Shown in pieces: positions 247 through 49,802 of a DNA stretch of 64,000 nucleotides. Origin of the DNA: Terriglobia bacterium (GTDB lineage Bacteria; Acidobacteriota; Terriglobia; 20CM-2-55-15); assembly GCA_965218585.1 (NCBI GenBank), contig CBDCLE010000017.1:32001-96000 (forward strand), in the 5' to 3' direction. The notes beneath the pieces are model-generated. The model was not told the DNA's origin and searched no databases. It worked only from the letters and a program-made list of their open reading frames with translations. The position numbers and the translations under genes are program-made. The stretch's first letter is position 1. Each line of letters begins with the position of its first letter.

Positions 247-1575
247 ATGCCCCCAGAACCCGCCCACAGCAAGTTCAGCAAGTTGCGCGAATCCCTGACC
301 TTACGTCTTCGGGAGGCCCGCGCCTCGACGGACGCACTCTTTTCGATGCTGGACCCGGAGGCAATCTATGAAAGGCCGATCGCGGAACGGCACCGGATCA
401 TTTTTTATCTTGGACACTTCGAAGCATTTGACTGGAACCTTCTGGCGCGTACCACACTGGGCCTGGACTCGTTTAACGAGTATTTTGATGACCTCTTCGC
501 GTTTGGAATCGATCCAATTGATGGAAGACTGCCCAGCGACACGCCTTCGGACTGGCCAGCTGTCTCCGAGATCCATGCATATAACCTGCGCATCCGAGGG
601 ACGGTCGACGATTTCCTCGGAAAAGCTGACTTTGAAGCTTCCGAAGACCTCAAGAACGGATTGGTTTTTGAAGTCGCGGTCGAACATCGTTTGATGCACG
701 CCGAAACCCTCACGTACATGCTCCATTGGCTTTCTCTTGACAGTAAACACGCCCCATCCTCCGAACACGACATCTTTGGTCTTCAACAAAAGAAGCACCA
801 GGTTGAAATTCCAGAAGGACTCGCCACCCTGGGACGAGAGAAGAATGGCGTTTTCGGCTGGGACAACGAGTTCGGCGAAGTAGGGATCGAGGTTCCACGG
901 TTCCGGATCGACGTTCGGAACGTTACAAACGGACAGTTCCTGGAATTCATTCGCAGCGGCGGATACGATGACCGGGGCCTGTGGAGCAAAGATGACTGGG
1001 ACTGGAAATCGAAATCCGGTGTGACCCACCCGAGTTTCTGGGAACGTCGTGGAGAAGTGTGGATGCAAAGGAACATGTTCGACGTACGTCCGATGCCGTT
1101 ATCGTGGCCGGTTTATGTCAGTCACGCCGAAGCTGCTGCCTATGCTAATTGGGCGGGAGGATCGTTACCGACAGAGGCCCAACTGCATCGGGCTGCATAC
1201 GGAACACCGGACGGCGAGGAACGGGACTATGCGTGGGGCTCGAAAGCCCCCGGCTCCGAACACGGAAACTTCGACTCTCGCAGATGGAATTCCACTCCTG
1301 TCGGCTCGTTCCCCTCGGGCAACAGCGCTTTCGGCGTCTCTGATCTCATCGGCAACGGATGGGAGTGGACTTCGACTGTCTTCGAACCGTTTGAGGGATT
1401 CCAACGATTTCACTTCTACCCCGAGTACTCATCGAACTTTTTTGACGGCAAGCATTATGTGATGAAGGGGGGATCGGCGAGAACCTCCGCGTGCATGCTC
1501 AGGCGGTCGTTTCGGAACTGGTTCCAGCCGCACTACCCTCACATATACTCCTCTTTCCGCTGCGTGGAAGCATGA
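247..1575 (+). CDS. egtB: Ergothioneine-type sulfoxide synthase (DinB + FGE-sulfatase domains)
   Basis: Iron ligands in FYLGH and EHRLMHAET; FGE motifs FGWDNE, LPTEAQ, GNGWEWT and RRSFRNWF; ATGA overlap with egtD. Confidence 0.85.
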   Translation: MPPEPAHSKFSKLRESLTLRLREARASTDALFSMLDPEAIYERPIAERHRIIFYLGHFEAFDWNLLARTTLGLDSFNEYFDDLFAFGIDPIDGRLPSDTPSDWPAVSEIHAYNLRIRGTVDDFLGKADFEASEDLKNGLVFEVAVEHRLMHAETLTYMLHWLSLDSKHAPSSEHDIFGLQQKKHQVEIPEGLATLGREKNGVFGWDNEFGEVGIEVPRFRIDVRNVTNGQFLEFIRSGGYDDRGLWSKDDWDWKSKSGVTHPSFWERRGEVWMQRNMFDVRPMPLSWPVYVSHAEAAAYANWAGGSLPTEAQLHRAAYGTPDGEERDYAWGSKAPGSEHGNFDSRRWNSTPVGSFPSGNSAFGVSDLIGNGWEWTSTVFEPFEGFQRFHFYPEYSSNFFDGKHYVMKGGSARTSACMLRRSFRNWFQPHYPHIYSSFRCVEA

Positions 1576-2552
1576 GGCAGACCATACCGGCAGACCAGGG
1601 ACCCGACTCGGAGACAGGCCAGTTCATCGCTGCCGTTCGCAGTGGGCTCAAGGATCAAACACAAAAGACACTCGACGTCAGATATCTTTACGACGCCGTA
1701 GGCTCGGCGCTGTTCGAAGTCATCACACTGCTTCCCGAATACGGAGTCACGCGTGCGGACGAGCGCCTGATCGATCGCCATGCCGCTGAACTTGCAAACC
1801 ATCTGGGGCCCGACGTCGTCATAGCCGAACTCGGGAGTGGCACGGGTGCCAAGACACAGCGCATCATTTCGGCACTCAGAGGCACGAAACCTCTCATCTA
1901 CAGACCCATCGACGTGTCCGCCTCGGCGCTGGAGCGTTGCCAGCGGGAACTTCGGACTTTTGATCACGTCGAATTGGAACCCCTGCAGCTTTCGTTCTTC
2001 GAAGGTCTGGAGGCGGCGATGGCGCGAACGCCCGAGGACAAACGCCTTCTTCTTCTATTCCTGGGTGGGACGATCGGAAATTTCGACAGGCCTGCAGTTC
2101 CGGAATTTCTGAAGGACATCCGTGGAATCCTTCGACCCGGTGATGCCTTCCTGCTTGGAACTGATCTAGAAAAGGCGACGTCCCGTCTCCTCGCGGCCTA
2201 CGATGATGCTCTCGGCGTGACGGCGGCATTCAACCTGAACGTTCTGGCAAGAATCAACCGGGAACTTGGCGGCAACTTCGATGTCTCCCAATTCGAACAC
2301 GTGGCTCGTTACGATGAGGACGAACGCCGTATCGAAATGCACCTTCGAGCCCTCCGAGACCAGCAGGTCGGGATCACGGCTGCAGATATCGAGATCAGCT
2401 TCGAGGAAGGAGAAACGATCTGGACTGAGAGCAGCCACAAGTTCAACGCTGCAGAGATCGCAGAGTTAAGTGAGATGAGCGGGTTTCGGTGTGCCGCTCA
2501 GTGGGTAGACGAAGAATGGCCCTTCGCAGAAAACCTATTGGTCGCCGAATAA
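1572..2552 (+). CDS. egtD: L-histidine N-alpha-methyltransferase
   Basis: YLYDAVGSALFEVITLLPEY, ELGSG, YDDALGVTAAFNLN and IWTESSHKF motifs; ATG at 1572 overlaps the egtB TGA. Confidence 0.9.
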   Translation: MRQTIPADQGPDSETGQFIAAVRSGLKDQTQKTLDVRYLYDAVGSALFEVITLLPEYGVTRADERLIDRHAAELANHLGPDVVIAELGSGTGAKTQRIISALRGTKPLIYRPIDVSASALERCQRELRTFDHVELEPLQLSFFEGLEAAMARTPEDKRLLLLFLGGTIGNFDRPAVPEFLKDIRGILRPGDAFLLGTDLEKATSRLLAAYDDALGVTAAFNLNVLARINRELGGNFDVSQFEHVARYDEDERRIEMHLRALRDQQVGITAADIEISFEEGETIWTESSHKFNAAEIAELSEMSGFRCAAQWVDEEWPFAENLLVAE

Positions 2553-2562
2553 ACAGGTCCCT

Positions 2563-3165
2563 TCAATAGGCCGTCTCGTACATCCGGCGCCGCAGGTCCA
2601 TCTGCCGCGATTCCAACTCTCGGATCTGACGCCGGTACCGTCCACGCCCGATGTAATCGTAGACACCCATCAAAGCCATCATCGCCCCGATCAGGGCAAA
2701 AAAACGGACGAAGGAGACGTAGAAGAACGTAATCGAAGACGGGGCTAATGTCCTCGACATCAGGATCACTGCAATTATCGAGAGTACGCTGACGACACTC
2801 CCGATCATGATCTTAATTCTGCAGTTGGAATATTTCCCGCTCAGATTCATGATCTCGACTGAAATGCGCGCATGTTCGCGCTGCAGCGCGTATTCCTGAC
2901 GCGGCGTGCGCCGGGGCCGAGAATGCACACCCCGCCTGTACTTGTCGATGAGCTTGTCGTATTCGGCACGTGTCTTTGAATCCAGCAGCGTCTCGACGAT
3001 GAAGTTCAACCGACTCATCTGCTCATGAGCCCAGTCCTTCTTGTCGGGAGGATTCATGTCCGGGTGATAGACCTTGGCCACGTCCTTGAACGCACGTTTG
3101 ATCTCCGGCGCACCTGCGTTCGGGCCCACGCCCAACTCGTCGTAGAAAGTACGTATCTCGGCCAT
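2563..3165 (-). CDS. DnaJ (J-domain) membrane protein
   Basis: N-terminal J-domain (YDELGV...YHPD) followed by two hydrophobic helices. Confidence 0.75.
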   Translation of the reverse strand: MAEIRTFYDELGVGPNAGAPEIKRAFKDVAKVYHPDMNPPDKKDWAHEQMSRLNFIVETLLDSKTRAEYDKLIDKYRRGVHSRPRRTPRQEYALQREHARISVEIMNLSGKYSNCRIKIMIGSVVSVLSIIAVILMSRTLAPSSITFFYVSFVRFFALIGAMMALMGVYDYIGRGRYRRQIRELESRQMDLRRRMYETAY

Positions 3166-3228
3166 GGATATGCCTGATTATAAAACCGCAATCCCCCGAA
3201 ATCCAGCGGCCGGATCTCTATTCCCCAG

Positions 3229-3350
3229 GAGTGGTGGAGGCGCCGCTTAGGCTAGGAACCGAAGCATGGGCACCGCAGGCGTACGCCGTTAATACGTTGA
3301 GGATGAACATGCGCAGCGTGACAACGCCTACGCGGATGCATACACTACTC
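3229..3350. mobile_element. MITE/REP-like non-coding element with imperfect terminal inverted repeats
   Basis: Left end gagtggtggaggcgccgcttaggc versus reverse complement of right end gagtagtgtatgcatccgcgtaggc; internal GCAGGCGTAC...TACGTTGAGGA core. Confidence 0.45.
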
Positions 3351-3353
3351 TAG

Positions 3354-4436
3354 CTACTTAAGGCGGGGGTCCGCTGCGTCTCTTAACCCCTCACCCACGA
3401 GGTTGTATGAAGTCACCGTGATGAATATTGCCAGACCTGGAAACAGCGTCAGCCACCAGCCACTGGGAAGGAAGGCGCGCGAGGTGGCAAGAATGGCCCC
3501 CCAGCTCGCTGTAGACGGAGGCACACCGAAGCCCAGAAAACTCAGCGTCGATTCGATTAGAATCGCCGAAGCCACGCCGAAGGTCGCGGCCACGAAGATA
3601 GGTGCAAGAGTGTTGGGCAGCACGTGGCGAAACATCGTCCTGAAATCGCTGGCGCCGAGGGCCTGAGCAGCCAGAACATAGTCGAGAGACTTTATCTTTA
3701 AGAACTCACCGCGGGTCAGACGGGCGACCGTCGGCCAGCTGGTCAAACCAATAACCACCATGATGTTGAAGATGCTCTGCGGCAGGAACGCGACAACCGT
3801 AATGATCAGGAAGAAGGTCGGAATCGTGAGCATCATTTCGATCAGACGCGATGCGATGATATCGGTAACTCCTCCGTAATATCCCGCAAGGGCACCTATG
3901 AACACTCCGATCAGGACGTAGATTGACACGGCAACAAAACCGACTGAGAGAGAAACGCGCGACCCGTGAACCATCCGGCTGGCTATATCACGGCCGATGT
4001 CGTCGGTGCCTAGCCAGTGAGTACCCGATGGCGGCAGGATCACCGAAAACAGGTCGGTCTCGGTTGGAGAGTATCGAATCGGTGGAAACAACGCCCAATC
4101 GTCATCTCCGAAATTCCTTTCGGAAAACTCCTTGTAGCGAACGTTCAGGAACTCCGGTTCCCATCGGGTCAAACCCAGCCAGACCCCGTAGCTGTTCATC
4201 ACCGGAAAGTAAGTATTCCCTTCGTAGTTCATTACCAACGGCATGTCGTTCGCTATAAAATCAGCGCCCAACGCAATCGCAAAGAGGAATAAGACCAGAA
4301 CAAGGCCGACGACAGCGACATGGTTACGTCTGAACTGTCGGCCTACTATCGACCAGTAATCCTGACGTCGATTGGAAGTGGCACCTACATCTTCCGGTTC
4401 ATTCCCGAGCTCTGTGTTATGCGGATTGCTGTTCAT
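3354..4436 (-). CDS. Oligopeptide ABC transporter permease (OppC/DppC type)
   Basis: HWLGTDDIGRD, EAA-like loop YVLAAQALGAS, LSFLGFG; start moved to ATG 4436, which overlaps the upstream permease end. Confidence 0.88.
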   Translation of the reverse strand: MNSNPHNTELGNEPEDVGATSNRRQDYWSIVGRQFRRNHVAVVGLVLVLFLFAIALGADFIANDMPLVMNYEGNTYFPVMNSYGVWLGLTRWEPEFLNVRYKEFSERNFGDDDWALFPPIRYSPTETDLFSVILPPSGTHWLGTDDIGRDIASRMVHGSRVSLSVGFVAVSIYVLIGVFIGALAGYYGGVTDIIASRLIEMMLTIPTFFLIITVVAFLPQSIFNIMVVIGLTSWPTVARLTRGEFLKIKSLDYVLAAQALGASDFRTMFRHVLPNTLAPIFVAATFGVASAILIESTLSFLGFGVPPSTASWGAILATSRAFLPSGWWLTLFPGLAIFITVTSYNLVGEGLRDAADPRLK

Positions 4437-5424
4437 ACCTGATTCTGGGATCGACAATCGTATAGAGAATGTCCGCAATCAAAATTCCCAACAGAGTCAG
4501 AAACGCACTGATCGTAAAGACAGCCATGATGACGGGATAGTCGCGCAACAGGACCGCTTCCCATCCCAGCTGACCCATTCCAGGAACCGAGAAGATTGTC
4601 TCGATCACGATGCTGCCGCCGATGAGCGTGGGCAATAGATTCGCCATGAGTGTCACAATGGGTATCAACGAATTCCTGAGGGCATGACGATAAATAACGA
4701 GTCGTTCGCTCAGACCCTTCGCCCGCGCCGTTCGAATAAAGTCCTGACGGACGACCTCCAGCATGCTGGAACGCATGTAACGAGACAAAGCCGCTAGCGT
4801 GTAATAAGTCATGCACGTAACGGGCAGGACGAGGTGCCACAAACGATCGGCAAACCGCTCCCAGAACGTCCAGTTGTCCGACCCGATGGTCTCAAGCCCG
4901 AAAACGGGAAACACATCGAGGAAATCGCCGCCCCCCAGATAGACGATCGCCAGCGTTGCGATCCAAAAATTCGGCAGTGAGTACAACATGAAAAGAAACA
5001 CAGTTAACACTTTATCGGTCCGACTATATTGATGCGTAGCAGAATAGACACCGAGCGGAATGGATATCAGGTACGCAAGGATCAGTGAGATACCACCCAA
5101 CTGAATAGACACCGGCACCCGTTCCTTCAGCTTGTCCAGAACCGGTCTCTGATCGCGAATGGAATTGCCGAAATCGAACGTGACAATCCGTCCCAGCCAG
5201 CTAAGATATTGCTCGTGGAGCGGTCGGTCTAAGCCGTAAAGAGCCCGCGTTTCCCGGATGATCTGCTCTGCCAGAGCCTGATCGCGTACACCTTGTGTAG
5301 CATTGCCGAGTCGCATCGTTGCGGGATCTCCGGGAGCCAACTGTATTATCAGGAAGGAAATCACGGAGATCCCGATCAAAGTGGGTATCAGTAGCAGGAC
5401 TCGCTTGATAAGGTATCCGCGCAT
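4417..5424 (-). CDS. Oligopeptide ABC transporter permease (OppB/DppB type)
   Basis: LAPGDPA, FIRTARAKGL, ETIFSVPGMG and DPRIR motifs. Confidence 0.9.
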   Translation of the reverse strand: MRGYLIKRVLLLIPTLIGISVISFLIIQLAPGDPATMRLGNATQGVRDQALAEQIIRETRALYGLDRPLHEQYLSWLGRIVTFDFGNSIRDQRPVLDKLKERVPVSIQLGGISLILAYLISIPLGVYSATHQYSRTDKVLTVFLFMLYSLPNFWIATLAIVYLGGGDFLDVFPVFGLETIGSDNWTFWERFADRLWHLVLPVTCMTYYTLAALSRYMRSSMLEVVRQDFIRTARAKGLSERLVIYRHALRNSLIPIVTLMANLLPTLIGGSIVIETIFSVPGMGQLGWEAVLLRDYPVIMAVFTISAFLTLLGILIADILYTIVDPRIRYEQQSA

Positions 5425-29893: not shown

Positions 29894-31309
29894 ATGAAAC
29901 CTAAAGAGGTAGTTGAATTCGCCCGGGAGAAGGGTGTGAAAGTAGTCGACTTACGCTTTGTCGATCTACCCGGCGTCTGGCAGCATTTTTCGATCTCTGT
30001 CTCAGAGCTAGCGGAAGATATTTTCAAGGATGGCCTTGGATTTGATGGATCCAGCATCCGCGGTTTCCAGCAGATTCAAGAGAGCGACATGCTGCTGATC
30101 CCGGACCCGGAGACGGTTTTCATGGATCCCTTCACTGAAGTACCCACCCTGAACATGATCTGCAACGTGAAGGATCCGGTGACGGGTGAATCCTACTCAC
30201 GCGACCCACGCTACATTGCCCAGAAGGCCGAAAAGCACCTTGAAGCGACCGGCGTAGCCGACACCGTTTACATCGGTCCGGAACCGGAGTTTTTCATCCT
30301 CGACGACGTCCGTTACGACCAGGGACCGGGATTTGGGTACTACTTCGTCGATTCCGATGAAGCGTCATGGAATACAGGCCGTCAGGAAAACCCAAACCTG
30401 GGACATAAACCGCGTTACAAGGAAGGCTATTTTCCTGTTTCACCGGTTGATTCTCTTCAGGACGTCCGTACAGAAATGATGCTGACGATGGAAAGCATAG
30501 GCATTCGAGTCGAAGTGCATCACCACGAAGTGGCCACGGCCGGACAGGCCGAAATCGATATGCGATTCGATACGCTCACGCGGATGGGCGACAAACTTCA
30601 GATGTACAAGTACGTCGCCAAGAACGTCGCAAAACGCCGCGGCAAGACTGTGACGTTCATGCCCAAGCCTATCTTCAGCGACAACGGATCCGGCATGCAC
30701 GTCCACCAGAGCCTCTGGAAGAAGGGCAAGAACGTATTCTACGAACCCGGGAACTACGCCGACCTCAGCAAGGAGTGCCAGTACTACATTGGGGGTCTGC
30801 TCAAACATGCCCCTGCCCTGCTGGCATTTGTCGCTCCGACGGTAAACTCATTCCGTCGACTGGTTCCTGGATTCGAGGCTCCGGTCACGCTGATTTACTC
30901 TCAGAGAAACCGAAGCGCCATGGTGCGGATCCCTGCGTACTCCAAGAGTGAGGGCGCCAAAAGACTCGAACTCCGCGTCCCCGATCCGTCGTGCAACGGG
31001 TATCTGGCCTTTGCCGCGATGCTCATGGCAGGTCTGGACGGAATCGAAAACAAGATCATGCCTCCGGATCCGGTCGACAAGGATCTCTACGACCTCGCAC
31101 CGGAAGAAAAGGCTGACCTCAATCAGGTCCCGGGTAGCCTGGACGAAGTGTTAGACGCATTAGAAGCCGATCACGACTGGCTCCTGAAGGGCGACGTCTT
31201 CACCCAGGACGTCATTGACACATGGCTCGCATACAAGCGCGAGAATGAGTTGGATCCGTTGCGGCTGCGGCCCCATCCCTACGAATTCACTCTGTACTAC
31301 GACATCTAG
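29894..31309 (+). CDS. glnA: Glutamine synthetase type I
   Basis: FDGSS, HHEVA, MPKP...GSGMH and NRSA motifs; adenylylation-site motif DLYDL intact. Confidence 0.97.
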   Translation: MKPKEVVEFAREKGVKVVDLRFVDLPGVWQHFSISVSELAEDIFKDGLGFDGSSIRGFQQIQESDMLLIPDPETVFMDPFTEVPTLNMICNVKDPVTGESYSRDPRYIAQKAEKHLEATGVADTVYIGPEPEFFILDDVRYDQGPGFGYYFVDSDEASWNTGRQENPNLGHKPRYKEGYFPVSPVDSLQDVRTEMMLTMESIGIRVEVHHHEVATAGQAEIDMRFDTLTRMGDKLQMYKYVAKNVAKRRGKTVTFMPKPIFSDNGSGMHVHQSLWKKGKNVFYEPGNYADLSKECQYYIGGLLKHAPALLAFVAPTVNSFRRLVPGFEAPVTLIYSQRNRSAMVRIPAYSKSEGAKRLELRVPDPSCNGYLAFAAMLMAGLDGIENKIMPPDPVDKDLYDLAPEEKADLNQVPGSLDEVLDALEADHDWLLKGDVFTQDVIDTWLAYKRENELDPLRLRPHPYEFTLYYDI

Positions 31310-31380: not shown

Positions 31381-31713
31381 ATGAAGCTCGTCAAGACCAT
31401 CATCCGTCCAAACAAAGTCGAGGACGTCAAGGATGCCCTGGAGAAGCTCCACATATCGGGGATGACGGTTACAGAAATTCGCGGCCATGGACGCCAGAAA
31501 GGACACACCTCGATTTACAGGGGCGCCGAATACAGCGTAACCCTCCTGCCCAAGATCATGATCGACATCGTCATACCCGATGAACTGGTGGACGACGCGA
31601 TCAAGACAATCATTGAAGCCGCAAGAACCGGAGAGATCGGAGACGGACGGGTTTTTGTGTCGCCCATCGATGAAGGCTACAACATCCGTACAGGCGAGCG
31701 GGACATCAACTAG
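31381..31713 (+). CDS. glnB: Nitrogen regulatory protein PII
   Basis: GHGRQKG, T-loop YRGAEY and TGEIGDG motifs (could equally be called glnK). Confidence 0.9.
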   Translation: MKLVKTIIRPNKVEDVKDALEKLHISGMTVTEIRGHGRQKGHTSIYRGAEYSVTLLPKIMIDIVIPDELVDDAIKTIIEAARTGEIGDGRVFVSPIDEGYNIRTGERDIN

Positions 31714-31753
31714 CAGTCAGCGCACAAGAGGCAAGCAAAACGGCCAAGTTTCT

Positions 31754-31821
31754 AGACACGAGGTTTTCGTGACCCAGAAAACCGGTCTTCGTGAAACTCG
31801 TGCCCTTCGTGCCTTCGTGTT
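31754..31821. repeat. Short (C)TTCGTG tandem-repeat element, partial inverted arm
   Basis: cttcgtg-like units at about 31766, 31788, 31797, 31805 and 31813; left arm gacacgagg. Confidence 0.5.
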
Positions 31822-31863
31822 GAAACACAATTTCGCTGCTCAGTTCGGTTCTTCTTTGGAACC

Positions 31864-34694
31864 TTACCCGGAATAACCATCAAATGCTGCGCGGACACGG
31901 GACGTAACTTCGGCGTAGGTCGCCTTGAAGTCGGAAAGTTCCAGCATTGCTTCGAGCGCTGGAATGTCCTTCTCTTCGATCCGGCTACTCGACAGGCTCG
32001 TCCATAGCCGGAGCATGGATTCGACATCACGGAGAAAGAAGTAGTCCTCGACCAATTCCTTGGAGACACTTGCCTGGGCCAGCACGCGGGCCGTGTTTGG
32101 AATCCGAATACCTTCTCGAATCTGAATAAATTCCGCGAGAAACTCCAGGTCAACAAGGCCACCGCGACCCAGCTTGAGATTGAGCACACCCGGAGCCTCC
32201 CTGGACAGCTCACGTTCCATACGGCCGCGGATGTGCCTCATCTCCTCGATCCCTGCTTTGCCGAATTCAGTTCCGTAGACAAACTCTTCGATCAGCGGAG
32301 TGAGCCCTTCAGCGACTCCCAGATTCCCCGCTACGAATCTGGCTTTCGTCCAGGCCATCCGCTCCCACACCTCGGCTCGGGAATGGAGATATTCTTCGGT
32401 TCTCTTGAGATCCCAGACGAGCGAGCCTTTCCGACCCTCGGGCCTCAATCGTAAATCGATACTGAATTCGCCACTCACACCCTCGACCAGTTCTTCAACC
32501 AACTGGCACGACTCCTCATAGTCACCGTCGAAAAACGCCATCACGTCGAGGTCGGATCTGTAATTCAACTCTTCTTCGCCGAATTTGCCGAGAGCGATCA
32601 GAGCGACCGGGCCGTCGGGGGGAAGCCATCGTGTAATCTGGGTCTCGGCAAAGCTGCTCATCAACAGGCTCGCTCTCTGTCGCTCCAGAACGCCGAACAG
32701 ATACTGAATGCCCACGTAGAACTCGAACATGCGGCGGCTTTCCGTTTCAAACGGCGGACCCAGTGACCGGGACAAGCGCTCCTTGTCGATCACGAACTCG
32801 GCCGTTCCGGGACGTTGGATAAGTGTGTCGGAAAGCCAGTCACTCAACGCAAACAGCCGGGTAAGACGCGGTATCGATTCAGGCGCCTCCAGGAGGGATC
32901 TGAAAAATACTTCGCGGGCACTCATCGAGGAGGTCAACCGTTCGAACCCGGTCAGAACCTTGCCGGGACGTACCAGTCGCGGAGCAGTTTCAAGTAACGC
33001 ACTGATGACGTTCGCCAACATGTTCTTCATCCGGCTTGGCGAATGCCCAAAGGCCGGAGCATCGCGCAATGATTCAAGGATGCTGGCCGCCTGGGGCGCA
33101 TCCTCGAAACCGAGCGAGGCAAGCCACGCCTCCGCAGATTCCGAATCCATCGCCTCGTTGACGAATCTGTGGACCGCAGAACCCGTCTTACCGTCACCTT
33201 CGTCCGGAGTTCGGAAGAGGTCGTTAAACACAGCGTGAACTTCCTGGCGATGTGAATCCAGGTCGGCACCGAACGCTTCGGGAGACATTCGCATCCTTAA
33301 TGCCAGAATGCCAGGCGGTTCAATTCGATTCTGTCGTCGGGAAGAGTGTGGGTCTGACGCTGATCGACGATCTGCAACCTGTGTTCGACGTTTCGCAGGA
33401 ACGCGTATGCGTCACCGAGCTTTCGAGAAACCTCCGATTCGATGAGTCCGGCCTGGTGGAGTTCCTCGAGGGCAGAGAGGGTCCCGGCTCCGCGAATGTC
33501 CGTCATCTCCCCGCCGTAGAGAACCTGCAACGCCTGGATAAAAAACTCGATCTCGCGAATTCCTCCCCAGCCCAGTTTTACATTCGAATCCAGCTCACCG
33601 GATGAGTCCACCTGCTGATCGATTCTGCGCTTGATATCACGGACCTCGTCGATCGCCGCGTAGTCCAGATACTTCCGATATACGAAAGGCTGGACCAACT
33701 CCATGAACGCCTTGCCCAGCTCCGGATCACCTGCGACGGGGCGGGCTTTTACAAGAACCAACCGTTCAAACGTCTCTCCCCAGGATGCATAGTAGGTCTT
33801 GAGCGATTGCATCGACGACGCCAGGGGACCGCGGCTACCGTCGGGCCGAAGGCGCAGATCAACACGATAAAAGGCACCCAGCGCCGTCCTGTCTCCCAGG
33901 TAGTGGTTGACCCTTCTCGCCAGCTTTGTCGCGTCGTTGAAGTGCGCTTCGTCGGAATAGATGTAAATGATGTCGATATCCGAACTGAAGTTGAGCTCCT
34001 CCCCACCGAGCTTCCCTACCCCGACGACCGCAAAGGAAAGATCGGGTTCCTTGAGTTGATCGGTCAGGTCACTGCGCGCTTCATCGATCGCCGTCTGAAC
34101 GATCGCATCGGCCAACCACGAGAGCTCATGCGTTATTTCGGTCACGTTCCCGTGTCCGGCCAGATCCCTGTACCCGATTCTGAGCAGTTCCCTGCGCTGA
34201 AATTCATGGAGCGCAGTGGTGCGGTCGGCTCCAACGGTGGACAAGGAAACCACACGCCGTGCCTCCTCGAAATAAGCCTGCCGGGTCCTGACTTCTTTCA
34301 CCGCGCTGTCCCTTAGCGTTGACAGGTACTCCGGGTGCCGCACCAACACGCCTGCCAGGTAGGATGAACTGCCCAATACCCAGGACAGAAGTTCCATCAA
34401 ATCGGAATCGTCAACCATCCCGGACCAGAAGCGCGCCGGTTCTTCTACTGCACGAACGTATCTATCCAGGTTCGACAGTGCCATGTCGGGATCGACAGCC
34501 GCGCCGAATACAGGAAGCAGGCGTTCGGTAACGGTTTCAACTATCGCCGGATCAATTCCTGACTCCGCCATGTCCTTGAGGTTCTGCCGGGCCTGCTGCG
34601 GTTGTTGGAATCCCAGTGCGGAAAAAAAGCGTTCTAGTTCGGAGGGTTCCAGGGAGTTCGAGCCGAGCAGGTCACGAGGTGCGAAGGTCATCAA
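31864..34694 (-). pseudogene. glnE: Glutamine synthetase adenylyltransferase split into two ORFs by an 8-bp duplication
   Basis: Two NTase motifs (GKLGGEELNFSSDID and GKFGEEELNYRSDLD); AATGCCAG occurs twice at 33299-33314; deleting one copy restores NRLALRMRMSP in a single frame. Confidence 0.88.
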
Positions 34695-34704
34695 GCAATC
34701 TGGA

Positions 34705-36687
34705 CTAAGCGTTCAAGGGTTCAAGGGCATCCCCGATCTTTCCTCTCAGCTGTTCCTGCAGATTGTCTGTAAGAGGGCGGCCATTCCGTGTCAGATAAAA
34801 GACGTCCAACGCCCGGCGGCCTTCGGTCGAAACCAGGGCAATCTCTATGTCGCATTCCAGCTCGGCAATCGCACGGGATACATGGAACAGGAGTCCCACG
34901 TCGTCGTTCGCTACGATTTCCATGATCGTCCGCTTCTCTGAAGTCGGATCAAAGTGGACGGCGACGGGCACCTGGCCCAGGTTATGACGATGAACAACGC
35001 TCGAAGAACGTCTTTCAATCAATTCATCCAGTCTTGCCGTCCCTGTGAGCGCATCGACGATCAGGTCTTCAAGCCTTTCTTTTTCAGAGGGATTTTTCTC
35101 CAACATCGCGTTCGGATCTTCAAATGCAATGAGGTCGAAGACGACACCACGGCTATTGGAAAACGCCTGCGCACGCACGGTGTTCATACCGAACGCTGCC
35201 AAGGCACCTGTGATCCGTGAAAACAAAAACGGAGTATCGGCCGTCATTACGAGAATCTCCCACAGGCCGTCCTTTTGAAACCAGTCGATGACGATGGGAG
35301 TCTTTTCCGAGTACCTCAGATATCCTTCGTAGTAGGCTGCGATTCGCTCCGGGGAAGTGCTCCGGAGAAACTGCTTGGGCAACCCTTCCAGGAACTCATC
35401 CAGTAACGTCGGAGCTACTTCAGGAGACAGAAAATGCATGACCTCGGCGGGGCCTTCAGCCACGCCTGCTTCCTGTCGGTATCGATCTTCTGCAAAATCG
35501 TGTCGTAACCGGTTGAAAGTCTCCAGATAAAGTTGGAACAGCAGGTCCCCTTTCCATGCTGTCCAGACTTCGGGGCTCACGGCCTTCATGTCTGCATACG
35601 TCAGGAGGCACAACATACGCAGATCCTCTTGAGTCCGGACAGTTTCGGCAAATTGAGAAATGACATCCGGATCGCTGATATCCCTGCGCATGATGAGGCT
35701 CGACATCTCCAGATGGTTTTGAATCGCCCAGCGGACACGATCCTGCTGTTGGGACGGCAAATCCAATCGTGTCAGAACCTCTTCAAGCACCTCGACACTG
35801 GAACATGCATGGTCCCCCTCGGGGTGTCTGGACGCCTTCCCAGTATCATGCAGAAGCAGGGACAACAGAAGGAGTTCGGGATCCTCCAACTCGCTCAGAA
35901 TCGAACCCAGGCCCCGCGGCACATCCTGGACGTCGGTACCCTCACTCAATTGTTCGATGTTCCGAACGGCAATCAATGAGTGCTGGTCGACTGTGTATTT
36001 GTGAAAAAAATCCCGTATGACTCGTGAACGAATTTCTTCGAACTCGGGGAAGATCCTGCCCAACAGGCCCACCCGATGCATGAGCTTGAGAACGCGATAG
36101 ATACCGTCACGGTCTTCCATCATTCGGAGAACGGCCCGGCCGTTCTCCCCGGTCGCCAGATCTTCGGACTTACCCTTTGAAAGGGCCCGTCGCACTCGTT
36201 CCATAGAGGACGAATCAAGGCCGAGCTTCTCCCGGTGTATCCGCTCAAACAACGCAACGATGGAACGGGGGTCCTTCAAGGGCCCGATTTCAGCAAGGTT
36301 GTCACGGCGGCCGGAAATTGCATCTTCAAGCGTCTGCGCCTCAGCCGCAAGAGACTCTGCCCTTAGAAAGTATTCGCGCATGAGGTTTTCGGCAGCTTCT
36401 CCCCGCTCCGAATCCTCATACCCCAGTTCGGCAGCGATCTTTTCCTGAAATTCATAGGTGAGAGCGTTCTGATCCCTGCCGGACATGAAATGCAGATAGT
36501 TTCGAATTCGGTGCGGGAACCCGGCCGCATCTTCAAGGCCCGGGCTGGGTTCGATTCCGATGACACGGGCCATCCACAGGGACCAGTGATAGTCGCGGAG
36601 ACCTCCCGGCGAAGTCTTCAGATCCGGTTCCAGCTGGAAGAGGGTTCCACCATATCCCGCCCAGCGTTCAGTCTTCATGTCGACCAG
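34705..36687 (-). pseudogene. glnD: 5'-truncated PII uridylyltransferase (HD domain and two ACT domains remain)
   Basis: LEPDLKTSPGGLRD, HKYTVDQH, LLHDTGK and two ACT domains; the N-terminal GGYGR/DxD nucleotidyltransferase region is absent. Confidence 0.85.
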
Positions 36688-38081
36688 ATACATGTTGTTG
36701 GAACGAATGTTGTCGTCCCATCGAGAAAAGCCGAGGTATTCACCGTACGTCAGACGAAAGCTGTCCGGCCCGGCACCGAGAAGTGGATGGTCCCGGGCAA
36801 TTGAAGTGCAGCGCTCCAAAGCTGGGGACGAGAAACAGAAGCATCCAGGGTGGGTCGGAATTTCGGCCCTCTTCTGTACCAGCGACTGACATCCCCCTCG
36901 CTAAAGCGTTCGGGAATGGTAGCATCCAGTTCAACTTCCACGACGCCGGGATAAACACCCGCAATACTGAATTCCCCGTATCCCCTTTGGCGCAGATCGA
37001 GGTCAAGCAGGTGAAGACCCCTCGACGCGGGTGTCCGAATCCTCGCAGTAACCTCCACCGTTTCACCCGCCTCGATATCGTACGGCAACAGACTCTCTTG
37101 AGATTCCAACTCTACAATTTCTTTCATCCGAACGTCATACCAGTAATGGGAGAGCGTTATGCGCCGTCGCCCACTGGATCTCCAACGTTCCCGACCCGTG
37201 TTGGTGATCCGAACGGGCAGTTCGTACCGAGAATCCGGGTGTAGTGTCAAGACGTTGAAGCGAGGCTCATACACGGCGCCCACAGCACGTTCACCCTCGA
37301 TCGCCCGGAATCGATCTATCAGAAGAGGTTGAAAGAGACTCACAAGAAGGTAGGCCGACACGCCCAGTATTCCCAGCAGAAAGGGCGAATCGTATTGAAC
37401 TCCTTTCTTGTAGGTGGGCTCTCGTCGGGATCGCACCCGCTCAATGACCCACCTGGTCGCCAACACAATGAAAAGCGCCCCAATTGCTCCTCGCGAAAAC
37501 GTGAGTATCAGCGCGGACCACACCAGAAGAGATCCCAGGATGCGCCAGGCTCTCGGGAGCCGAACTGACCAAATCAGCGGGATCGACATGGCAAAATACG
37601 CCGCAGCCGTAGTCGGGTATTCAAACGAACCACTCAGGCGGGTTACTGTCCCGAGAAAGTATTCTCCGGTCCTGAAAAGCTCTGGGAAACCAAACCCAAG
37701 GGAGTCGACGAGACCGTAAGTGGCGGCTACGACGGCGGAGACGCTCCAGACTGCGACCACCTTTTTTCGCGCAGACGATGTCAGCGCGATGGATAGCAAG
37801 ACAAGACCTGCCCCGAATCGCGCTACGACCTTCAAAGAGTTATCGAGCTCATCGGCCAGCAGCGCCGAGGCAACGCAAACCATAAGAAACGCAGCCCCGG
37901 CAATCACCACCTTTCTCTCGAAAAGCATCCGACGCTGTTTCCAGAGTTCAGGAACACTGACAATTGCCAGCGCGACGAAGAGCCACTGCAAAACGCTCAG
38001 GCCAAGGACATCGTACACGGGTTCGAAGGGCAGGAAGGCTACAAGTGTAAGCAGGATGCCTGTGGACGCTCCCTCAGGCAT
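36685..38081 (-). pseudogene. O-antigen ligase/Wzy-like membrane protein, frameshifted and 3'-truncated
   Basis: Multi-TM protein with RLSGSFEYP and LTFSRGA plus an Ig-like insert; HPLLGAGPDSF...NNMYL continues in another frame after about 36800. Confidence 0.75.
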
Positions 38082-39506
38082 GGCTGCGCTTCGTGCGTTC
38101 AGGGTGATTGCGCCGGGACGATACCAGGTCCACACACCATACACCAACTCGAGCGATGACGACTTTCACGCCTTCTACAACAATCTTGTGGTAGGGCCGG
38201 CTCTTTTGCCTCCACATCCGGGCAACAGCAACTTCTTTTACAAGCCATCGGATGGCAAACCAGTAGTACAGGCGGGGGTATTTCCCTTTGAACAACAGCT
38301 TGTTCTGATTGCGCGAAGTCCAGTTATCGTCGACGATCACACGGTCCTGGACACGCTCATAGAACTCCGTTCCCTTGATGGGAAACGCAACTGACGTCCC
38401 AACGACATCCGGACGAGTGTGTTTAAGCAAGTCGATCGTCAGACGAATATCGGCCGTGGTCTCTTCGGGATAACCCAAAAGGATGAAAAAGCCCGACTCC
38501 ATGCCCATTTCTTGCGTGATCCGTGAGGCCTCCCGAACCTGCTCCACCCGAGTCCCCTTCTGCATACTGTCGAGGACCTTCTGCGATCCTGATTCAGCGC
38601 CGTACCAGATGCGGAAGCATCCACTGGCTTTCAGTCCGGCAAGGATTTCGCGATCCACAAGATCCGCTCGACTCAGACACTCGAACCGATGCTGGGCCCC
38701 GCGCCTCTGAACTTCGTCGAAGAACGCGAGGCTCCATTCTCGATTGATGGTCAGAACGTCATCGGAGATCCACATGATGTCAGGGGCATATCGCTCCTTC
38801 AGCATCATCATTTCGTCAACGACGTCTTCGGGCGAGCGTTGGCGGTGAGAGTGGCCAAATACTTCAGCCGAGCACCATGAGCAGTGAAACGGACAGCCGC
38901 GGGCCGTAATCAGCGACACGGCGTCTCGCCATGTTTGGATTTCCAGGCCCGGAAATAGTCTTCCATCCTGAGAACATCGCGGTCCGGCCAGGGCAGGCTG
39001 TCCAGATTAGCGATGGACGGGCGGGGGGGCGTGCGGTAGGGAAATCCGTCCTTGTTGAAAATAATCCCCGGAACCTGTTCCAGATTTTGAAGTCCCTGCT
39101 CCTGAAGTCGTGGGATGAGCTCTTCGAGTGTGTGTTCACCCTCGTTGGTCCCGACGATGTCGACCCCCGCTTCGAAATAGAGCTTGGCCCATTCGGGAGC
39201 GTCTGGGCCTCCAACCAACACGTATTGGACACCAGAGTCCTTGGCCATCCGTGACAGTTTCAGAACGTTGTCCCGCGTGATGATGTTGGTGTAGAGACCT
39301 ACGATTCGCGGCCGCACCTTTTCGAGGGCGCTGGCGAAATCTTCGAAATCCCGAAACGCGCTGTCGAAAACCTCTACTCCAAAACCACTCCGTTTGAGGT
39401 ACGCCGATAGGTACAGGATACCCAACGGTGGATAAGGTTTCATGACTCGCCGCTCGACAACGTCGTACTTCAGAAAATATCCGTGTCCCAGGAGAATGTC
39501 GGTCAC
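38074..39506 (-). pseudogene. B12-binding radical SAM enzyme, frameshifted
   Basis: YPPLGILYL and VGGP (B12 domain) in ORF 38910-39506; RGCPFHCSWC and GAESGS in ORF 38074-38919; one base missing near 38920. Confidence 0.82.
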
Positions 39507-47706: not shown

Positions 47707-47845
47707 AGTTATTGTAGGCGTTCCCGATGGACGCCTGGAGACAGAACCACTGTCATACCAATAAGTTCGGGAATGTCGAGCAAGAAGACCATGGATCAGA
47801 CCGCGATTACTGCCATGCCGGTTTCGACGACGGAAAGGGATGAGG

Positions 47846-49210
47846 GAGGTCGTTCCAATCGGTGTGTAAAAAGAGAAGGCGGTGTACGCTTTCGGTGAAT
47901 CCGAAACCCTAAGCAATCCCGGCAGCAACCGGGAGAAAGGTACACCACCCATGAAGAAGAAGAACATACCGGCATCAGTGGCGTCAACGAACGCGTATGA
48001 AGGTTTGGAGGACTGGGCGCGATCCCGGGTCCAAGTCTGGCTACAGGAGCTGCTCGAGGACGAAGTCACTCAATTTCTGGGTCGGGAAAAGTCGGAGCGG
48101 AGTCCGAATCGACGAGGATACCGGAACGGTCACGGGAAGCCGCGACGCTTCGCAATGATGAACGGTACGATGGAGGTTCGACGACCTCGGGTTCGAAACA
48201 CCGCCGAGCGGTTCGAGAGTCAGATCCTGCCGTATTTTCGACGGAAATCGAAACAGCTGGGCGAGCTACTTCCCGATCTCTACCTCCACGGTCTGGCCAC
48301 AGGGGACTTCGAGCAGGCCATGCGCGGACTGCTTGGCGCTGGCGCTCCGTTGTCGCGAGCATCGATCCAACGACTGAAATCGACCTGGCAGTTGGAGTAT
48401 GACGAGTGGGTCCAGCAGGACCTGTCCGGCCTCGAGGTCGTGTACCAGTGGGCAGACAGCTTGTACGTGAAAGCGGGGATCGCGAAAGAGCGAGCGGCAT
48501 TGCGGGTGATCATCGGAGCCTTGTCAGACGGGCGCAAAGTGGTGTTGGCCTGTGAGAGCGGGCAGCGGGAAAGCAAGGAGTCCTGGAGCCGCATTCTGCG
48601 CAATCTCCAGAGACGGGGCCTGAAGCTGGGACGGCTGACTGTCGCGGACGGTCACCTGGGCATCTGGTCCGCGCTGGCCGAGCAACAGCCCCAGGGCCAG
48701 GAACAACGCTGCTGGAACCACAAGTCGATCAACGTGGTCGATCATCTGCCGAAGACCGAGCAGCCCGCGGCCAGACAGCTGCTCCATGGGATGGCCTTCG
48801 CGAACTCCCGCGCGGCCTGCGAACGAAAGCGGGATCAGTTCGTCCGCCGATATGAGAAGAACTATCCCAAAGCGGGTGAGACGCTGTTGCGGGACTGGGA
48901 CCGGATGATTACTTTCTATGAGTTCCCGAAACAACACTGGGTGCATCTGAGAACAACCAACATCGTCGAATCGCCTTTCGACATGGTTCGCCTCCGTACC
49001 AACGCCGCTCGCCGATTCAAGCGTGTCGAGAATGCAACGGCAATGATCTGGAAGCTACTACGTGTCGCTGAGAAGGCTTGGCGACACTTAAAAGGATCCG
49101 AACTCTTACAAGAGGTCTATGATGGTCAGCAATTCGCTGACGGCATCAGAGTCGTGATGAAATCGAAGGCCGCCGCCTGATGACTTTTACACACCTTTTG
49201 TAATGACCTC
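47846..49210 (+). mobile_element. IS256-family insertion sequence, complete
   Basis: IRL gaggtcgttccaatcggtgtgtaaaa and IRR (rc) gaggtcattacaaaaggtgtgtaaaa match at 22/26; 8-bp TSD GGATGAGG at 47838-47845 and 49211-49218. Confidence 0.93.
47951..49180 (+). CDS. IS256/Mutator-family DDE transposase
   Basis: YRNG, LYLHGLATGDF, WAD, VADG, QRCWNH and RTTNIVES motifs; uninterrupted ORF. Confidence 0.92.
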   Translation: MKKKNIPASVASTNAYEGLEDWARSRVQVWLQELLEDEVTQFLGREKSERSPNRRGYRNGHGKPRRFAMMNGTMEVRRPRVRNTAERFESQILPYFRRKSKQLGELLPDLYLHGLATGDFEQAMRGLLGAGAPLSRASIQRLKSTWQLEYDEWVQQDLSGLEVVYQWADSLYVKAGIAKERAALRVIIGALSDGRKVVLACESGQRESKESWSRILRNLQRRGLKLGRLTVADGHLGIWSALAEQQPQGQEQRCWNHKSINVVDHLPKTEQPAARQLLHGMAFANSRAACERKRDQFVRRYEKNYPKAGETLLRDWDRMITFYEFPKQHWVHLRTTNIVESPFDMVRLRTNAARRFKRVENATAMIWKLLRVAEKAWRHLKGSELLQEVYDGQQFADGIRVVMKSKAAA

Positions 49211-49802
49211 GGATGAGGACAGAGACCTTGTATCCCGATACCTGTCTGGAGATATGATCGCCTTTGACGAGTTGATGACCCGCCACGAAAGGCAGATCTA
49301 CAGACTCTGCTTCCGGTTTGTGAAGAACCCGGAAGACGCCATGGATCTGACTCAGGAAGTCTTCATCAAGGCCTTTGAGAAACTCACTGCTTTCCGGGGG
49401 ATGCCCGGTTCAAAACATGGTTGTATCGCGTTGCGGTCAATCATTGCCTGAACCACGTAAAGAAAAACTCCCGGGAGTTTGTCGAAGTCAACGAAAGTAT
49501 TGGAAGCGTCGGTCCGTCTTCTCATAACAGACTGCTTGAGAGAGAACGGCGCGATATCGTAAAGCAGCTCATGGGGAACCTCCCTCCGAAGCAGAAGGCG
49601 ATTCTCGAGCTGCGAATGAACGACAATCTGAGCTACGAAGAGATTGCAGGCATACTGGGACGATCGGTTTCGACGGTCAAATCCAGCGTCTTCTTCGCGC
49701 TCACCAAGCTCAAGAAGATGGTCGCCCAACAGGCGGCTGCAGGCCAAATGTGATCCAGGCGGTATGAACCAAATAGCAGGGCTATAACACTGGCAGATAA
49801 CA

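Follow-up and report, generated by a model that had tools for sequence, protein, structure and literature searches.

An exact 8-bp tandem duplication at the frame break of glnE in an uncultured Acidobacteriota lineage that seems to be shedding GlnD/GlnE control

How did glnE, which encodes the adenylyl-removing and adenylyl-transferring enzyme that controls glutamine synthetase (GS), come to lie in two separate frames in an uncultured member of the Acidobacteriota, and what is left of its function? The question is raised by a 64,000-nucleotide stretch of the assembly GCA_965218585.1 (Terriglobia bacterium, contig CBDCLE010000017.1, positions 32,001 to 96,000 of the forward strand), referred to below as the window and numbered from its first letter. 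The original prediction made from this sequence had glnE cut by an exact 8-bp duplication, as long as the target duplication of an IS256-family insertion sequence (IS) in the same window, and offered three origins for it: an IS footprint, an assembly that had dropped an IS copy, and a reversible slippage yielding two translationally coupled half-enzymes. In our assessment, it is probable that a spontaneous small tandem duplication, unrelated to the IS, has inactivated or crippled glnE in a lineage from which the GlnD/GlnE cascade is disappearing.

The tandem 8-mer was confirmed in the sequence: positions 33299-33306 and 33307-33314 are two exact copies of AATGCCAG, standing in the plus-strand context ...CCTTA ATGCCAG AATGCCAG GCGG..., and the repeat extends neither to the left nor to the right, its edges being without microhomology. 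On the minus strand, from which glnE is read, the site runs CTGGCATT CTGGCATT, then TAA (33299-33297), two bases and ATG (33294-33292), just as had been described. The second frame has a further ATG at 33288-33286, with AAGGA 5 nt before it. When one copy of the 8-mer was taken out by script, the stop-to-stop frame spanning the site rose from 515 codons to 946. In the nearest orthologues, which are 56-57% identical and come from another genus of the same family (G017 and G007), glnE is one continuous open reading frame (ORF) of 1041 and 940 aa, respectively, and in the alignment the match of the N-terminal half ends at residue 462 and is followed by exactly two residues and then by residue 1 of the C-terminal half, which is the spacing of the single-copy sequence. 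At the break the orthologues read ...ELEKCA-RR-MKMSIEDF..., and the window reads ...ELNRLA/FWH, the stop, and then MRMSPEAF.... One copy of the 8-mer thus reproduces the orthologue register exactly, and the earlier statement that a GlnE of about 940 aa is restored by removing the other copy holds good for both the 946-codon frame and the spacing of the 940-aa orthologue.

Taken by itself, an exact 8-bp tandem repeat is nothing rare: 143 two-copy repeats of this kind occur in the genome, 4 of them inside the window's span of its contig (C17). What goes beyond chance is the position of the repeat, exactly where the frame breaks, and the return of the orthologous spacing when one copy is taken away. 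The data support the duplication as the cause of the split. Among the other repeats of the window, GTTCAAGG x2 (plus one base, 34711-34726), in the last codons of the glnD-like gene, was considered as a second lesion and rejected, for the present frame aligns with the C-terminus of the orthologue; this repeat is native sequence and a reminder that chance alone can produce such pairs. Hairpins or neighbouring repeats that might have templated the glnE duplication were sought locally, and only weak matches came up. Neither a metagenome contig scan with the N-terminal half (91 pattern matches, 0 confirmed) nor a DNA search of 30 relatives for the glnE site (nothing above 70% identity) revealed a relative with an unbroken allele, and because no closer one turned up, the ancestral state is read from the 56-57% identical orthologues.

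The duplication is real DNA, common to strains of three studies. Window positions 31500-35000 were compared with Logan contigs from four public runs (X1, X2, X3 and X5), of which X1 may be the window's own source, and X2 and X3 come from studies other than that of X1; the supporting contigs have a depth of only 2-4, at which rare variants cannot show. A record of X1 (record 1) covers the whole interval with 0 differences, a 3145-base contig of X2 (record 4) covers 31500-33842 with 2 substitutions (33347 T>C and 33476 A>G) and 0 gaps, and an 804-base contig of X3 (record 11) covers 32543-33346 with 0 differences, reaching 32 bases beyond the repeat. In X5 no contig lies over 33021-33722, so the glnE site is not covered in that run. 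The contigs of X1, X2 and X3 contain no indel, joint, loose end or IS at the site, and within the limits of such low-depth contigs they present a single glnE allele with two repeat units only. The strains sharing it are 2 substitutions apart in 3.5 kb, both of which alter the protein (T450A and S407P), a number too small for selection to be measured. A dropped IS or a consensus error is ruled out, since both copies, with no IS, appear in each of three assemblies built separately; the second of the proposed origins is thereby refuted, and the single copy in spanning sequence that had been named as the sign of an assembly error was seen in none of the three runs. An artefact, with one copy or an intervening IS as the true sequence, might be thought of in a 26-contig assembly whose IS copies are resolved inside contigs, and which is therefore probably a long-read one, but an exact 8-bp duplication is not a typical long-read error, and with the two-copy site recovered independently in three studies, once in a strain marked by two nearby substitutions, we regard such an artefact as extremely improbable.

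The gene resembles E. coli-type GlnE (PRK11072; 1V4A, 3K7D) in its two tandem nucleotidyltransferase modules, here spread over two frames, in its company of glnA, glnB and glnD, and in its length of ~940 aa with one copy of the 8-mer fewer; it differs in being broken after residue 462 by the duplication, with halves that score below the equivalog cut-offs. Instead of one continuous polypeptide of ~940-1000 aa, there are two frames (465 and 476 aa), across which two PF03710 + PF08335 modules can be followed, the first PF08335 being cut. The N-terminal half matches PF03710 at residues 102-331 and PF08335 at 354-462, where the match stops at profile position 105 of 141; the C-terminal half matches PF03710 at 229-324 and PF08335 at 358-471. 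In the intact G007 orthologue the first PF08335 is complete at residues 353-491, and the equivalent of the break is at ~462. Aligned with the structure of the E. coli N-terminal domain (1V4A, chain 1-440; E 2.5e-52), the N-terminal half ends at residue ~406, and on the NCBIfam model of the E. coli type its match goes no further than position 408 of 946. By these comparisons, the break takes away the last quarter of the helical domain of the first module. The matches thus place the break inside this helical domain and outside the inter-domain linker, where the original prediction had put it; for the Q linker of E. coli GlnE we assume the position given in the E. coli literature. The remainder of the helical domain of the first module is encoded at the beginning of the C-terminal half, ahead of the central region and of the second nucleotidyltransferase module. 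The best NCBIfam matches of both frames are three GlnE equivalogs, all under their cut-offs of 724, 625 and 487 bits (342, 319 and 313 for P0001; 109, 143 and 152 for P0002), and the intact G007 orthologue passes PRK11072 with 493 against the cut-off of 487. The catalytic motif of GlnE is G-x-G-x-x-E-L ... S-D-[IL]-D; the translations contain GKLGGEELNFSSDIDI in the N-terminal half and GKFGEEELNYRSDLDV in the C-terminal half, both of which align with the E. coli motif, and from the translations and the domain matches the nucleotidyltransferase cores are intact in both halves.

The surroundings of the gene point to loss rather than to a new arrangement, because glnD is truncated, the congeners lack both genes and further genes of the genome are broken. 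The glnD-like frame aligns with the 827-aa GlnD of G007 only from residue 159, and the missing ~158 residues hold the nucleotidyltransferase motif; no remnant of the GlnD N-terminus was found by tblastn, either upstream or anywhere in the genome, and an unrelated 465-aa ORF (36750-38147) with no Pfam match adjoins the truncated gene. The neighbouring glnD is devoid of its catalytic N-terminus. Neither GlnE (PF03710) nor GlnD (TIGR01693) was detected in any of the four congeners searched (G001-G004, 95-98% complete), and GlnE is present in 24 of 34 genomes of the family, this genome excluded. Among the searched members of the genus, this genome alone keeps glnE and glnD, both damaged. The lineage thus seems to be shedding the covalent control of GS, as its congeners already have.

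The course of events that we favour would begin in glnE of this uncultured Acidobacteriota lineage, where a spontaneous error of replication or repair, made with no IS involved, would have doubled 8 bp in tandem; the resulting allele is found today in strains from three studies. The frame shifts after residue 462 and the first product ends three residues later, so that the adenylyl-removing module is cut off, within its last helices, from the part that holds the regulatory and adenylyl-transferring functions. As a consequence, glnE would be dead or crippled, and this would be one stage in the disappearance of GlnD/GlnE control of GS from a genome accumulating insertion sequences and broken genes, and the match with the IS256 target-duplication length would be a coincidence.

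The genome is indeed eroding: its 26 contigs (4.55 Mb) contain 60 full-length and 16 partial IS copies, most of them 98-100% identical, 13% of its DNA is multi-copy, and several genes are broken. Expansion of insertion sequences together with a build-up of pseudogenes is a feature of relaxed selection, as in Shigella, Mycobacterium leprae and recent symbionts. What resembles such genomes here is the load of IS (60 full copies), the multi-copy DNA (13%) and the several genes broken by small duplications, frameshifts and truncations; the present genome differs in belonging to an uncultured soil-type acidobacterium of 4.55 Mb.

The IS of the window belongs to the IS256 family, as element 47846-49210 combines a Mutator-type DDE transposase (PF00872, E 7.7e-60), terminal inverted repeats (26 nt, 85% complementary) and a target duplication within the 8-9 bp of the family. 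The 8-bp duplication claimed for it is there, GGATGAGG occurring on both sides, at 47838-47845 and 49211-49218. At the boundaries chosen, exact 8-bp target duplications flank 45 of the 60 full copies in the genome; the other 15 have no matching flanks, and several of these show swapped flanks, as expected after recombination between copies. The element is active now or was so recently, and its 60 near-identical copies indicate that this activity was high. A target-site model built from the 45 duplications never exceeds 0.13 bit per position and puts the glnE site at the 67th percentile of random sites; the IS target shows no sequence preference by which the glnE site could be judged. A Ku gene (C5:165565-166104; PF02735, E 5.4e-46; open frame of 319 codons) is present in the genome, and end joining may be available.

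Tandem duplications were also surveyed over the whole genome. Raw counts at period 8 look enriched (150, and 107 against a mean of 62 once multi-copy DNA had been masked), but after separation of short motif families the single-copy DNA holds 55 period-8 units seen once, compared with 82, 69, 54, 54, 63 and 60 at control spacings from 11 to 26. There is thus no genome-wide excess of unique 8-bp tandem repeats (55 vs 54-82), although anything below about 15 events might be lost in the noise, and the enrichment was discarded as a scar signal, being made up of motif families and vanishing for units seen once. We further screened for repeats whose reduction to one copy joins two frames of at least 150 codons each. 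Such candidates number 3 among the 143 repeats of 8 bp, 1 among the 6 of 11 bp and 1 among the 2 of 20 bp, with none among the 231 of 7 bp or the 11 of 10 bp, and random removals merge frames in 25-35 of 4000 trials; the 4-bp and 5-bp candidates (82 of 12959 and 36 of 3867) occur at the chance rate, and homology was checked, by Pfam, for the classes of at least 7 bp. Besides glnE, an 8-bp duplication breaks the gene of an AMP-binding enzyme: CGCCGGCC x2, which extends by one base, divides it exactly at profile positions 213/215 (C11:15653-15668; L063 2154-2169). A molybdenum hydroxylase gene, probably broken by it, carries an 11-bp tandem duplication at the break (C3:247777; L064 1778), and a gene for a flavin adenine dinucleotide oxidoreductase, cNMP-binding and ferredoxin protein carries a 20-bp one (C19:96152; L065 2153). 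We rejected the last of the three 8-bp candidates (C22:37215), which lies between two separate genes: the domain upstream, DUF6152, is complete, and the beta-propeller gene downstream opens with a signal-peptide-like start of its own. Genes of this genome are therefore broken by tandem duplications that differ in length. The earlier suggestion to look for other genes with exact 8-bp breaks was borne out by the AMP-binding enzyme gene, and not by C22:37215 or by any excess over the genome.

Could the glnE duplication nevertheless be a scar left by the IS256-family transposase? The routes considered are an insertion followed by exact loss of the element, and an aborted integration whose 8-bp staggered cuts were filled and rejoined, for instance in a Ku-dependent manner. 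The lesion has the length of the element's target duplication, exact at 45 of the 60 full copies; the near-identity of these copies speaks for recent activity, the duplication edges are without microhomology, an open Ku gene is present, and the AMP-binding enzyme gene (C11:15653) is a second gene broken by exactly 8 bp, whereas none of the 7-bp and 10-bp repeats passed the frame-merging screen. On the other side, excision of IS256 restores a single target copy, and an excision footprint would call for an element that leaves its donor site and for an occupied allele. As to the former, PMC7780238, which deals with IS256 and ISCth4 and not with the present element, describes copy-out/paste-in transposition for the family and replicative pathways that regenerate the donor copy and leave no empty donor site. 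As to the latter, no IS lies between the two 8-mers in the contigs of X1, X2 and X3 (where rare variants can be missed), nor does any loose end with IS sequence. With IS256 and ISCth4 the element of the window shares its type of transposase, its inverted ends and its 8-bp target duplications; the glnE lesion is without any IS sequence, and on the route of the family the donor copy stays in place. Moreover, unique 8-bp repeats are at the chance level (with the reservation about fewer than some 15 events given above), C22:37215 drops out as a gene break, duplications of 11 bp and 20 bp have broken genes as well, and the target-site model cannot discriminate. That two of the four homology-checked breaks measure 8 bp is a weak hint at best of an IS origin. 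For the IS footprint of the original prediction there remains only the shared length; the family transposes by copy-out/paste-in, and neither an 8-bp excess nor a target preference was seen. We consider an IS-related scar quite unlikely. It is very unlikely, in our opinion, that the duplications in glnE and in the AMP-binding enzyme gene are both element-free scars, made when the target was cut with an 8-bp stagger, filled and rejoined, perhaps by Ku; such scars would be a by-product not described for copy-out/paste-in insertion sequences.

A different doubt concerns not the origin of the duplication but its effect, as both halves might be made, with translation of the C-terminal one restarting either at the ATG two bases past the stop or at the next ATG, which AAGGA precedes, and might act separately or re-associate through the divided helical domain, so that GS control would be altered and not lost. 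The stop/start arrangement with its Shine-Dalgarno-like AAGGA, the intact catalytic cores and the spread of the allele over strains of three studies suit this reading, as does the existence of single-module GlnE-family proteins encoded by separate genes beside glnA in related genera. It is also in line with the activity of GlnE truncated to its adenylyl-transferring (AT) part in A. brasilense, A. caulinodans and H. seropedicae: in two reports (PMC9249168; bioRxiv 10.64898/2026.09.02.748916), residues 438-928 of the H. seropedicae enzyme are active and no longer answer GlnB-UMP, and the AT-only truncations escape PII control, the unidirectional adenylyltransferases (uATs) shutting GS down. The start context of the C-terminal half is, however, ancestral coding sequence (L-R-M-R-M) in the orthologue register and not an evolved start. 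The engineered uAT and deltaNT-GlnE proteins resemble this half in starting near the module boundary, but they begin after a complete N-terminal domain and from designed starts, and the C-terminal half of the window starts ~30 residues earlier, within the first helical domain. That domain loses its last quarter here, whereas the natural single-module forms keep PF08335 whole (1-141). In addition, the signal that reaches GlnE by way of PII comes from glnD, and this gene is truncated, the congeners searched live without glnD and glnE, an unopposed AT half would be costly if it shut GS down as those reports have it for other bacteria, and with 2 substitutions in 3.5 kb between the strains the sharing of the allele shows recency and not maintenance. 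We therefore hold a functional split, whether the halves act apart or re-associate, to be unlikely. Of the third origin in the original prediction, the IS-independent duplication stands as the likeliest one; its coupled half-enzymes are not supported, with the cut lying within a domain, glnD truncated and both genes lost from the congeners searched.

Our preferred reading, a spontaneous duplication in a glnE that is decaying, has to contend with several observations. Both halves keep intact nucleotidyltransferase cores, and no decay following the split is visible yet; the TAA, two bases and ATG, with AAGGA before the second ATG, would allow the C-terminal half to be translated, and AT-only truncations are active elsewhere, according to the reports cited above. 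The two substitutions are too few to measure selection on glnE, and the contigs backing the duplication have a depth of 2-4 only. Exactly 8 bp, the length of the IS duplication, is found in two of the four homology-checked gene-breaking duplications of at least 7 bp, and the absence of flanking microhomology, in a genome with Ku, would also be compatible with an IS-linked origin.

For annotation, glnE of the window would best be described as a frameshifted pseudogene beside a truncated glnD, and neither as two genes nor as an assembly error. It is an ordinary pseudogene, useful mainly for annotation. Element-free 8-bp scars, if they existed, would represent a new mutagenic side-effect of a common IS family, and if both halves were made and active, nature itself would have provided a test of what happens when the two activities of GlnE are uncoupled; neither case is favoured by the evidence at hand. 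The features of the locus are collected in Table 1.

Table 1. Features of the glnE locus and the IS256-family element (window coordinates)
Feature	Coordinates	Strand	Remarks
glnA, glutamine synthetase type I	29894..31309	+	intact, 471 aa
glnB-type PII gene	31381..31713	+	intact, 110 aa
glnE C-terminal half, adenylyl-transferring type	31864..33294	-	476 aa; ATG 33294-33292
8-mer tandem duplication AATGCCAG x2 (minus strand CTGGCATT x2)	33299..33314	.	frameshifting lesion of glnE; found in contigs from three runs
glnE N-terminal half, adenylyl-removing type	33297..34694	-	465 aa; TTG start 34694, ATG next at 34691
glnD-like gene	34705..36819	-	next gene upstream of glnE; carries HD and ACT domains and a partial PF08335
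IS256-family element	47838..49218 (element 47846-49210)	+	Transposase_mut ORF 47882-49180; 8-bp target duplication GGATGAGG on both sides

The product of glnA contains DLYDLAPEE, which we take to resemble the adenylylation-site motif. In related genera, two divergently transcribed genes of single-module GlnE-family proteins lie beside glnA, at 977-2572 (-) and 2696-4924 (+) of locus L068 and at 3640-5217 (+) and 1465-3552 (-) of locus L069. The shorter form (525-531 aa) has full PF03710 and PF08335 and is closer to the N-terminal half of the window, and the longer one (695-742 aa) has an ACT-like domain before the GlnE module; the pair looks like a natural version of the enzyme made up of two genes, perhaps with a sensor domain built in. 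These genes show that one GlnE module can be encoded alone in this bacterial family; they differ in that their PF08335 (1-141) is complete or nearly so, in that they are only 26-40% identical to the window's halves, and in representing a different, older architecture of separate genes with no frameshift.

Two further observations concern rearrangement and repeats in the genome. Two oppositely oriented IS copies on contig C14 (22950-24314 and 43501-44865) share the flank GGCGCATT across the copies and not within each copy, and this swap is the signature of an inversion by recombination between them. The motif families behind the 8-bp excess (canonical units ACGCAGAG x23, AGAGGCGC x10, AAGACACG x7 and AAGGCACG x4) recur as tandem pairs across single-copy DNA and could be binding-site arrays or a small repeat element. 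The spacer between glnB and glnE (31760-31820) contains a run of CTTCGTG-like motifs.

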